A DNA stretch of 60,771 bases, the filler included, from Bipalium vagum (lineage: Eukaryota): assembly GCA_037834085.1 (NCBI GenBank). It is 3 parts of 3 records of this genome, joined end to end, with 100 filler letters (N's around TTAATTAATTAA, not from the genome) between each part and the next. Parts side by side here need not be neighbours in the genome. Positions count along the whole stretch, not along the records: positions 18,577 to 35,333 come from JBBMKC010087579.1; 2 more parts are not named here. The stretch is one strand, 5' to 3'. Of the stretch, positions 33,278-35,142 are shown one piece after another. Positions within the stretch are counted from its first letter, which is position 1; every line of letters starts with the position of its first letter. A program made the translations under genes and the position numbers. Under the pieces are notes generated by a model. The model searched no databases, was not told the origin of the DNA, and saw only the letters and a list, made by a program, of their open reading frames with translations.

Positions 33278-33603
33278 AGACCACATATTGTTATGAAAAT
33301 TAATGATCACATTTATTAGCACTCATAGACACTGGCGCTCAATCCTCAACAATTCATCATGCATTATTAACAGAAATGGAAAGGAATACCATGAATTTTC
33401 AATCTATAACAGTTTATGGTGTCGATAATTCACCATATATCATGATGGGAACATTTAAAAGTATTGTTACCCTATTGGATTATAATTTCCAACATGAATT
33501 TTATGTTGCCTATGATAACCCAAGAAGTTGTGTCATTGGAATGGATGTATTGTTAAAAATCCCACACGTTGTATTAGACATTGCAGAAAAACGTTTGTAT
33601 GTC
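33278..33603 (+). pseudogene. retropepsin (aspartic protease) domain 1
   Basis: RPHIVMKINDH /1-nt shift/ LALIDTGAQSS...VYGVD...CVIGMDVLLKIP. Catalytic DTG at 33328-33336, upstream of the ORF-track start. Confidence 0.85.
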
Positions 33604-35142
33604 CCAAGTTATACTACTACGGATGGAGGTAATTCCACATCCAGTACAGTATCGTCACTACCGTCTTTCGAAGAAGTTTTTGGCGTAGATGACGACTCAG
33701 TCATGTCAACATCTGTAATTAGTCATCATGAAATAGATCAAACACAAGGAAATTCTCGTCCGGTAATGCGAGTAAACCCCATGCCAGCAACAGTTGATAC
33801 ATCTTCGCAAGCCAGGACTATGAAGCATTTCTTAAACGAAATAGCCAAAGTAAGACATTGCTTTGCCCTAGGCTTCACCAAAGAGGAAACTTTCGATCAA
33901 CTTGCACAAACATTACCCGTATTATTTACAGTTCCAGATCAACATGGGGATACGCCTCTCCATAATGCTATCCTACGAAATAATGCTCATCGTGCAGTAG
34001 AAATTATTGATATAATTAAAGATTCATACAGATGGGTTTTCGAAAGAGAAAATAGATTTGGACATACTCCTCTTTTAATGACATCCGCATGTCAAGCACT
34101 TGTTAGTCTAATTAATCTCCTAATACAATACGGTTGTCGTATTGATAGATGGGATAAAGCAGGAAAATCTATAGTAGATCATGCCATTGACGATCAAAAC
34201 GAAGAGATAATGCATTACCTTATGACACAAATTCGGCGTCAACATTTACCTCAAATTTTTCAACGTAATGGTTACAATAATCAAACCTCTTTACATTTCG
34301 CAGTAGCCACAAATTTTACAGAAGGAGTAAAATTAATCACTGAACTAGTAGATATCGATTTAGAATATATGGCAGATGTGAACGCAGCCGAACTTCTTAG
34401 AGATGAAACTCCCTTACATCTTGCAGTTCGATTTAATACCAATACGGATATTATTAAAATATTACTCAGAAGAGCTGATATTAATATTTATCAAACAAAT
34501 GAAGATGACAAAACGGCATTGCAGTTAGCTCAAGATAAGCAAGCAGTCGATATGATCGACTTACTCTTACAAGCAGAATTTGGTGATAAAATTGCACAAT
34601 TGCCTCATATCACTACTAATTTAGAAGCATTGATGGATTCAGATGAAGAACCTTCAAACAATCCAGATCCAGCACCAAGTGTCAATTGTCTCAGAAGTTT
34701 GCAATTCAGAAAAGAAACGAGACCAATGTTGAGCATAAAAGTCAATAAACATACCGCATATGCATTAATTGACACAGGAGCCCAAACATCTTTAATTGAT
34801 GTCAGGATATTGAATATCGCTGAACAAGAAGTTATTGACACCCGACCTATTTCAGTAGTCGGAGTGGATGGTAAGTCAGTTCCTCTTATTGGCAAGTGTA
34901 GATGCATTTTACGTATTATGGGACATGACATTGATCATACTCTTAAAGTGATGAAAGATAACGAGATAGAATGCATCATAGGAATGGATGTGTTATCCAA
35001 AATTCCTGGTCTTATATTAGACTTTTCCACACATCAGTTAAAATTTGTACACGAGCGAAAACGTCGAACCATTAAGGATGATGATAACGTAGCAGTTGTT
35101 TTAGATTATACTGTAATCCCACCTAGAAGAGAACAAATATGA
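33376..35142 (+). CDS. 588-aa ORF: rest of protease 1, Ser/acidic linker, six IkappaB-like ankyrin repeats (~33937-34578), acidic/Pro linker, retropepsin domain 2 (~34720-35046)
   Basis: Ankyrin starts GDTPLHNAI, GHTPLLMT, GKSIVDHAI, NQTSLHFAV, DETPLHLAV, DKTALQLA. Second protease ALIDTGAQTS (DTG 34771-34779)...CIIGMDVLSKIP. The frame continues after TGA as LIATNFPNGQEVVFEP...IPVRIANFDIQPCAIYQGMRVGTI. Confidence 0.9.
   Translation: MERNTMNFQSITVYGVDNSPYIMMGTFKSIVTLLDYNFQHEFYVAYDNPRSCVIGMDVLLKIPHVVLDIAEKRLYVPSYTTTDGGNSTSSTVSSLPSFEEVFGVDDDSVMSTSVISHHEIDQTQGNSRPVMRVNPMPATVDTSSQARTMKHFLNEIAKVRHCFALGFTKEETFDQLAQTLPVLFTVPDQHGDTPLHNAILRNNAHRAVEIIDIIKDSYRWVFERENRFGHTPLLMTSACQALVSLINLLIQYGCRIDRWDKAGKSIVDHAIDDQNEEIMHYLMTQIRRQHLPQIFQRNGYNNQTSLHFAVATNFTEGVKLITELVDIDLEYMADVNAAELLRDETPLHLAVRFNTNTDIIKILLRRADINIYQTNEDDKTALQLAQDKQAVDMIDLLLQAEFGDKIAQLPHITTNLEALMDSDEEPSNNPDPAPSVNCLRSLQFRKETRPMLSIKVNKHTAYALIDTGAQTSLIDVRILNIAEQEVIDTRPISVVGVDGKSVPLIGKCRCILRIMGHDIDHTLKVMKDNEIECIIGMDVLSKIPGLILDFSTHQLKFVHERKRRTIKDDDNVAVVLDYTVIPPRREQI

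Follow-up and report, generated by a model that had tools for sequence, protein, structure and literature searches.

Organization of the locus

The window analysed here is the whole 60,771-nucleotide stretch of Bipalium vagum DNA (NCBI GenBank assembly GCA_037834085.1), which consists of three parts joined end to end; positions 18,577 to 35,333 come from JBBMKC010087579.1. Its host DNA is AT-rich and eukaryotic, with spliced genes. The single long open reading frame of the region examined here, at 33307-35142 (+), encodes 611 residues that comprise most of a first retropepsin domain (PR1), a module of six ankyrin repeats (ANK) and a second retropepsin (PR2). Together with the end of an envelope glycoprotein (Env) to the left, the parts follow one another in the order Env-tail-PR1-linker-ANK-linker-PR2-spacer (Table 1), with the ankyrin repeat motifs starting at 33946, 34060, 34162, 34279, 34402 and 34507. 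The two colinear retropepsins that a sequence-only reading had placed at 33278-35046 are thus both present, and they lie in one frame.

Table 1. Features of the envelope-protease-ankyrin segment and their coordinates in the window.
Feature	Positions	Strand	Evidence and remarks
gB/chuvirus-type envelope glycoprotein, C-terminal half and membrane anchor	32240..32815	+	Pfam PF24664; 5' side missing
Env cytoplasmic tail / pre-protease spacer	32819..33277	+	includes first NPDP (33080)
PR1, faster-evolving retropepsin copy	33278..33606	+	DTG at 33328; PR profile score 80
Ser/Thr-rich, partly acidic linker, ~70 aa	33607..33819	+	sequence reading
Helical cap and six ankyrin repeats, predicted to be IkB/NF-kB-p100-like	33820..34600	+	Pfam Ank_2, E 7.8e-19; model
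Acidic, Pro/Ser-rich linker to PR2	34601..34713	+	holds second NPDP (34660); sequence reading
PR2, conserved Pol protease	34714..35046	+	DTG at 34771; Pfam gag-asp_proteas, RVP and Asp_protease
Beginning of the spacer between protease and reverse transcriptase	35047..35333	+	stop at 35140; terminates at run of N

The connecting segments have left few traces elsewhere. The Env tail aligns weakly to the Env-to-protease tail of L002, one of the five closest related loci (L001-L005), with a score of 66 against a best shuffle of 59 in 500 shuffles, and no match to the linker between PR1 and ANK was found in the relatives. The linker between ANK and PR2 may resemble the PEST tail of IkB. The spacer that leads to the reverse transcriptase (RT), which is presumably dUTPase-like, has no match in Pfam and is 32-33% identical over 63 aa to the interval between protease and RT of L001, L002, L004 and L005. 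Two runs of N, at 18469-18578 and 35334-35433, are alike in build, each having a short palindromic AT linker at its centre, and are an assembly artefact.

A decayed copy of an envelope-before-Pol element

Pfam PF24664 (Monjiviricetes_fusion) matches 32219-32815 over profile positions 414-601, with E values of 8.5e-10 and 3.3e-11, and the Env is 44% identical to that of L002 over 230 aa. A gB/chuvirus-type Env is therefore present upstream of Pol, ahead of PR1, and because the proteases lie behind it we regard the locus as a GAG-ENV-POL Ty3/gypsy element of which a decayed and truncated copy is left. The Pol of this copy is cut off by the second run of N, from 35334, and the order protease (PR)-RT-RNase H (RH)-integrase (IN) is lost to the gap; it is present in L001, L004 and L005, and in two further relatives, P0074 and P0169. 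Neither RT, RNase H nor an integrase of the element was found elsewhere in the window, and there are no LTR-like or other long flanking repeats around the block within it, the element being truncated at about 32240 and at 35334.

The decay is evident within the frames that remain. There are stops at 32627 and 32816 in Env and at 35140 in the spacer, and the first beta strand of PR1 (about 33278-33310) lies in a neighbouring frame to its DTG, with the break near 33310-33316, so that PR1 is broken in this copy; the ankyrin module (33820-34600) is unbroken. Many diverged copies of the element exist. Summed contig depth rises abruptly at about 32230 and is 1,337-8,270 over 32230-35333, compared with 24-30 on the unique flank, figures that come from one run, possibly the window's own source, and that as summed depth are no copy number; of 3,306 contig pieces on 29500-35333, 1,253 are less than 90% alike. 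One contig, 83% alike, runs from the end of PR1 across the linker into the beginning of ANK. The two Env stops and the break in PR1 are all sites at which other copies read differently, two contigs departing from the window sequence at the break, and PR1 is covered as deeply as the rest of the element. No RNA data set was among those listed as containing the stretch, which is uninformative about expression. Among the short contigs no unbroken PR1-ANK-PR2 copy was seen, and no listed piece spans the unit. Among the 40 copy differences listed, of 619, 29 fall in the element frames, and those classed comprise 20 that change an amino acid or make a stop and 7 that are silent; most change an amino acid, as a dead copy would lead one to expect, and they reflect decay of this copy and not selection in the family.

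Two related retropepsins

In frame, PR1 and PR2 align without gaps and are identical at 36 of 93 positions (39%), scoring 170 where the best of 1000 shuffles reached 54; when PR1 is read across its break with an X, 39 of 106 columns are identical. These figures agree with the gap-free alignment at roughly 35-40% identity that the sequence-only reading had counted by hand, and the common motifs that it listed (ALIDTGAQ, GVD and C.IGMDVL.KIP..LD) are as it gave them. Both domains carry ALIDTGAQ and IGMD, which correspond to the D[TS]G and hydrophobic-hydrophobic-G motifs of clan AA retropepsins, and Pfam PF13975 and PF13650 each match two stretches. The catalytic DTG is kept in both, PR1 being frame-broken in this copy. 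An NPDP motif does occur upstream of each protease, as had also been pointed out, but it lies 83 residues ahead of the DTG in one case and 37 in the other, and a common 4-mer arises in 8.4% of 10,000 shuffles. Being out of register and at chance level, NPDP carries no weight, and we rejected it as evidence.

Among 138 other protease domains the best match of PR1 is PR2. In a tree of 71 domains and 111 columns, for which the bootstrap had not fully settled, the two are sisters (86/86, unstarred) within a starred 98/98 clade that also holds P0058, P0059, P0061 and P0062. The comparison set was collected with PR2 as the query, which is a bias, and left out of the tree were the whole-unit repeat proteins (P0076, P0086, P0091, P0121, P0129, P0130 and P0165), domains that were incomplete and the majority of hits with one protease; 23 proteins had been hand-picked as nearest. 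By an AU test on 32 rows, membership of PR1 in the protease clade of P0060, P0097 and P0150 is rejected (p 0.016), that clade having been picked after the first tree had been seen, and a place for PR1 just outside PR2 plus its relatives is not (p 0.318). The data are compatible with this second placement as well as with the sisterhood in the tree that had been proposed as a check, and the sister grouping, the best match of PR1 to PR2 and the rejection of the other clade uphold the proposed duplication within the element.

We find it scarcely credible that PR1 and ANK came from a different element that was inserted into this one or recombined with it. PR1 is less like PR2 (39%) than PR2 is like the protease of its relatives, the set gathered with PR2 may miss the kin of PR1, and a PR1-only search of longer proteins found no match; however, the frame is continuous, the nearest domain to PR1 is PR2, no long repeats flank the block, and the AU test speaks against the one other clade tested.

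The five closest loci, all from one metagenome data set, each have a single protease, 44-52% identical to PR2, and no ankyrin match, the stretch upstream of the protease being visible in four of the five. L002 runs from Env through tail, protease and spacer into the approach to RT in one frame, and L001, L004 and L005 continue to RT; the collections viral_contigs and genome_contigs yielded no related loci. Because the closest relatives have one protease and lack ankyrin, PR1 and the ankyrin module are most simply a later addition, the alternative being their loss in the relatives. The duplication had been described as old, and saturation of its silent sites (see below) bears this out; with single-protease relatives so close, it is most simply younger than the split from them.

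Selection on the two copies

Across the 93 codons, identity between PR1 and PR2 is 49% at the first codon position, 69% at the second and 39% at the third, and only 2 of 13 four-fold sites are alike, which amounts to saturation. The two proteins nonetheless agree at 14 of 16 family-conserved columns as opposed to 22 of 79 others, and PR1 carries the family residue at 13 of the 16 family-conserved columns that it covers. A neutral copy of that age would be expected to have lost such a pattern. As silent sites are saturated yet conserved columns are kept, both copies were under selection, in keeping with what had been proposed; the codon comparison shows purifying selection on both at some time since the duplication, which is not proof that PR1 is needed today. 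The terminal branches are 1.66 for PR1 and 0.37 for PR2, a 4.5-fold difference, and this asymmetry in rate makes a division of labour between them plausible.

PR1 might instead have arisen as a side effect of capturing the ankyrin module and persist today only as a folded spacer, or as an enzyme that is dispensable and slowly decaying. Its long branch and its break in this copy would fit such an origin, as would one contig that omits 33342-33496 within PR1 and a relative, P0078, whose proteases are mostly without catalytic motifs. Against this, PR1 kept its catalytic motif and the family residue at 13 of 16 conserved columns while silent sites became saturated, other copies read differently where this one is broken, and PR1 has as much contig coverage as the rest of the element, and we judge a mere by-product very unlikely.

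The ankyrin module and its likeness to IkB

The model of 33820-34680 (pLDDT 86) consists of a helical cap and six repeats. Among 48,161 chains its best natural structural matches by VIA-align are IkBa (1nfi; Z 21.5, rmsd 2.6, 204 aligned, 26% identity, covering all six repeats) and IkBb (1oy3; Z 21.4, rmsd 2.2, 206 aligned), and with Bcl-3 (1k1b, Z 20.5) and p100 (4ot9, Z 20.4) four IkB-family chains are found in the top 9. Within 1 Z of IkB there are also a DARPin (21.6), ankyrin-B and Notch (20.6), EHMT1, HIP14 and gankyrin. Foldseek on the PDB, with Bcl-3 at rank 10 and IkBb at rank 32, does not single out IkB, and neither does a fold search of viral models, in which the ankyrin domain of a planarian nidovirus stands at rank 19.

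For repeats 1-2 the top PDB sequence match is p100, in register, with E values of 1e-6 and 9e-8 for the whole chain and an i-E of 0.13 for the stretch alone. The repeats are spaced 38/34/39/41/35, compared with 39/33/40/34 in p100 as counted from the alignment. In a small and crude control, 28 triples taken from 94 other ankyrin hits, the long-short-long pattern was seen 0 times. A PDB sequence search with the whole module has no IkB in its top 60, and no hit in the homologue searches (37 for the module, 57 for the full frame) bears an IkB name, these being generic ankyrins at 24-39% identity; the Atlas matches are likewise generic ankyrin clusters, and those in NCBIfam are generic ankyrin, far below the cut-offs.

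The module therefore has the six repeats of the IkB family (IkBa, IkBb, Bcl-3 and p100), with IkB-type uneven spacing and fold, first repeats in register and Z scores of 20.4-21.5; it departs from the family in having only 17-26% identity and about 7 extra residues between its fourth and fifth repeats. On these grounds we lean towards an origin in the IkB family. With duplication and selection just as real, the module could also be a generic protein-binding adaptor and not an IkB mimic, serving for example in assembly, in trafficking or in blocking another host defence. The tie of non-IkB ankyrins within 1 Z, the generic ankyrins returned by sequence searches, and the unrelated sequences that other relatives carry between their proteases all suit an adaptor; the four IkB-family chains in the structural top 9, the coverage by six repeats of the whole repeat region of IkBa, and the p100-like spacing and first repeats do not, and on balance we rate an adaptor as rather unlikely.

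Extra proteases in relatives

A homologue search with PR2 among 1.84 billion representatives gave 109 hits, including long single-frame Gag-Env-PR-RT-RH-IN polyproteins. A protease domain is present in 108 of the hits. Two or more are present in 27, among them at least 7 whole-unit repeats and two of cellular appearance; the latter (P0081 and P0139) resemble tandem domains of the cellular Ddi1 type and were not counted as elements. The type of Env was scored by Pfam on a scanned subset and by our own profile on all 109. Nine of the 109 bear the Env described here, and seven of these nine have at least two proteases (P0060, P0064, P0065, P0078, P0080, P0097 and P0150), a proportion that overstates the rate since phmmer sums domain scores and favours multi-domain hits; the two with a single protease are P0071 and P0074. 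A member of the P0097 cluster, P0169, is an unbroken chain of 3,003 aa in the order Env-PR-PR-RT-RH-IN with two DTGs. No ankyrin was found in the 113 protease-hit proteins, and other relatives have unrelated inserts between their proteases.

In most of these proteins the proteases group with others of the same protein, in starred groups for P0060, P0078, P0080, P0099, P0139 and P0153 and unstarred ones for P0065 and P0134; those of P0064 and P0068 group by position instead. From these groupings the extra proteases of the Env-bearing relatives seem mostly to stem from separate duplications. Presence of two to four proteases in most of the Env-bearing relatives retrieved suggests a recurring need in single-frame Env-Pol polyproteins.

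Proteases can also stand in a row, three in P0150 and four in P0060, with gaps of 33 to 184 aa compared with about 370 here, and seven other proteins have protease pairs 33-59 aa apart. These pairs are of interest for the proposal, made from the sequence, that a single chain forms a pepsin-like pseudo-dimer of PR1 and PR2 with the ankyrin module as its loop, an arrangement that would make activation independent of concentration. Both keep DTG, and a flexible linker of some 70 aa could be long enough to reach past the ankyrin rod. A predicted PR1-PR2 complex scores 0.41 against 0.01 for the best control, which lends the proposal weak support: passing scores that do not exceed 0.60 were seen for only 5 of 78 solved complexes and for each of the 4 mismatches that passed. 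The runs, in which supplied alignments were not used, agree in at least 82% of contacts, with a partner pLDDT of at least 72. However, retropepsin dimers have already been solved, and likeness to them can explain the score; relatives that have three proteases ahead of RT argue against a general pairing rule, and the 4.5-fold difference in rate would fit separate jobs better than two half-sites. The single-sequence model of the whole frame (pLDDT 35) is unusable for chain geometry. A single-chain pseudo-dimer thus draws something from the two-chain prediction, and in view of the solved dimers and the three-protease relatives we consider it distinctly unlikely.

Several of the relatives have other features of note. 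P0060 and P0068 both list a longest contig of 21,743 bases; if they are one contig, it would encode Gag-Env-four proteases followed by two more proteases-RT-RH-IN, making six proteases. P0064, P0068, P0074 and P0169 have a domain after the integrase, flanked by hydrophobic stretches and a few hundred residues long, that matches nothing in Pfam and is possibly a second surface protein, and P0064 has a third protease in that region. P0065, from Caenorhabditis nigoni (CAO4382312.1), is a single-frame Gag-Env-PR-zinc-finger(H2C2)-PR-RT-RH-IN polyprotein, a nematode case of a protease pair with an insert. P0074 (HBK71150.1) is a eukaryote-type Gag-Env-Pol polyprotein filed under a Flavobacteriaceae bin, and is likely a contamination of that bin.

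Relationship to known elements and viruses

To our knowledge retroelements are drawn with one protease. Non-canonical nematode ERVs are reportedly the subject of work by Sacco and colleagues from 2022, as cited by Chary and Hayashi, and that work may cover the nematode cases. GAG-ENV-POL 'ancient errantiviruses' with an HSV/gB-type Env have been described from nematodes, bryozoans and flatworms (Chary and Hayashi, eLife 2026, PMC13524379). The present element is like them in its gB/chuvirus-type Env before Pol, its many copies and the PR-RT-RH-IN order of its closest relatives, and unlike them in that its Env and RT are separated by two proteases and an ankyrin module; in the main text of that paper the word 'protease' occurs once and 'ankyrin' never, and in its seven supplements neither occurs, the figures being outside the search (PMC13524379). 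For Cer1, one protease is named in the text seen (PMC10309623).

Ankyrin domains are carried by other viruses. The planarian secretory cell nidovirus has a host-derived ankyrin domain in its polyprotein, a proposed IkB mimic whose host homologues are proteins with a Rel domain plus ankyrin repeats (PMC6211748); as here, a host-type ankyrin lies inside a viral polyprotein with IkB mimicry as the proposed function, whereas the nidovirus is an RNA virus with three repeats and no flanking retropepsins. The vankyrins of polydnaviruses are homologues of Cactus/IkB that block NF-kB signalling (PMC3757122, PMC5977223). They too are ankyrin proteins of endogenous viruses, but are encoded by stand-alone genes and have four of six repeats and no turnover signals, in contrast to six repeats within a retroelement polyprotein. 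Bdelloid LTR retrotransposons with GDSL and DEDDy ORF3s have likewise captured host-type domains (PMC5408684); their ORF3s are separate reading frames after pol, unlike the present module, which is in frame, upstream of RT and bracketed by a duplicated protease, and the word 'ankyrin' is absent from the text available for that paper. Searches of the full-text literature, which excludes most subscription papers, turned up no description of either a duplicated protease or an ankyrin cargo for the Env-before-Pol class. The class of element is already known, and the twin proteases with ankyrin cargo, the likeness to IkB and the recurrence of extra proteases are apparently new; the last two had gone unnoticed in the sequence-only reading.

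A model for the protease-ankyrin-protease arrangement

The explanation that we prefer, and to which we give about an even chance, is that this is a decayed copy of a multi-copy Env-before-Pol Ty3/gypsy element in which the protease was duplicated around an added ankyrin module and both copies were kept under selection, likely so that the module, a predicted IkB-like blocker of NF-kB, could be freed. The module was probably captured from a host RNA by a template switch, and re-entry upstream of the protease would copy the protease, giving PR-cargo-PR in a single step. Given the established topology of type I glycoproteins, whatever follows the Env anchor in a single-frame Env-Pol chain lies on the cytosolic side of the membrane. 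Since PR2 keeps the ancestral junction with RT and has changed little, it likely remains the enzyme that matures Pol; PR1, which keeps the junction with the Env tail and has changed fast, likely serves the new joints, cutting between Env and PR1 and between PR1 and ANK and so freeing the ankyrin protein from the membrane-anchored polyprotein. Each protease would for the most part work as a conventional dimer, formed when two polyprotein chains come together, with mixed dimers possible. By analogy with viral IkB mimics, the freed ankyrin protein would bind a host NF-kB/Rel factor.

A wider reading, which we put forward tentatively, is that Env-before-Pol elements may repeatedly duplicate the protease to form a cargo bay behind Env, and that here the bay releases a captured IkB mimic. 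If true, this would be a retrotransposon with its own NF-kB antagonist, something reported until now from DNA viruses and suggested for a single nidovirus. With an IkB-like cargo, an envelope-carrying retrotransposon of an invertebrate would be acting against innate immune signalling, which bears on the question of whether such elements have an infectious, extracellular life.

Other features of the window

Directly upstream of the cut Env, at 30140-32009 (+), there is a broken integrase (Pfam rve, E 1.3e-4) with further frames, a segment that we take to be Polinton/Maverick-like. Summed contig depth reaches 44,000 over that integrase and is about 370 over the rest of the segment. Spliced host genes lie at 20715-27847 (-), 36284-36530 (+) and 9058-9333 (-). 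They comprise an EF-hand gene, so identified by Pfam, that may also encode WD repeats, and presumably an acyltransferase and an exon for an Ig domain. Decayed DNA transposons are found at 11901-12443 (-), 39237-40140 (+), 46678-47927 and 40718-41633, and include Tc1-like, pogo/Tigger-like (HTH_Tnp_Tc5 and DDE_1) and mariner-like kinds, the last with 40-nt terminal inverted repeats, together with a short element that has inverted repeats of 48 nt.
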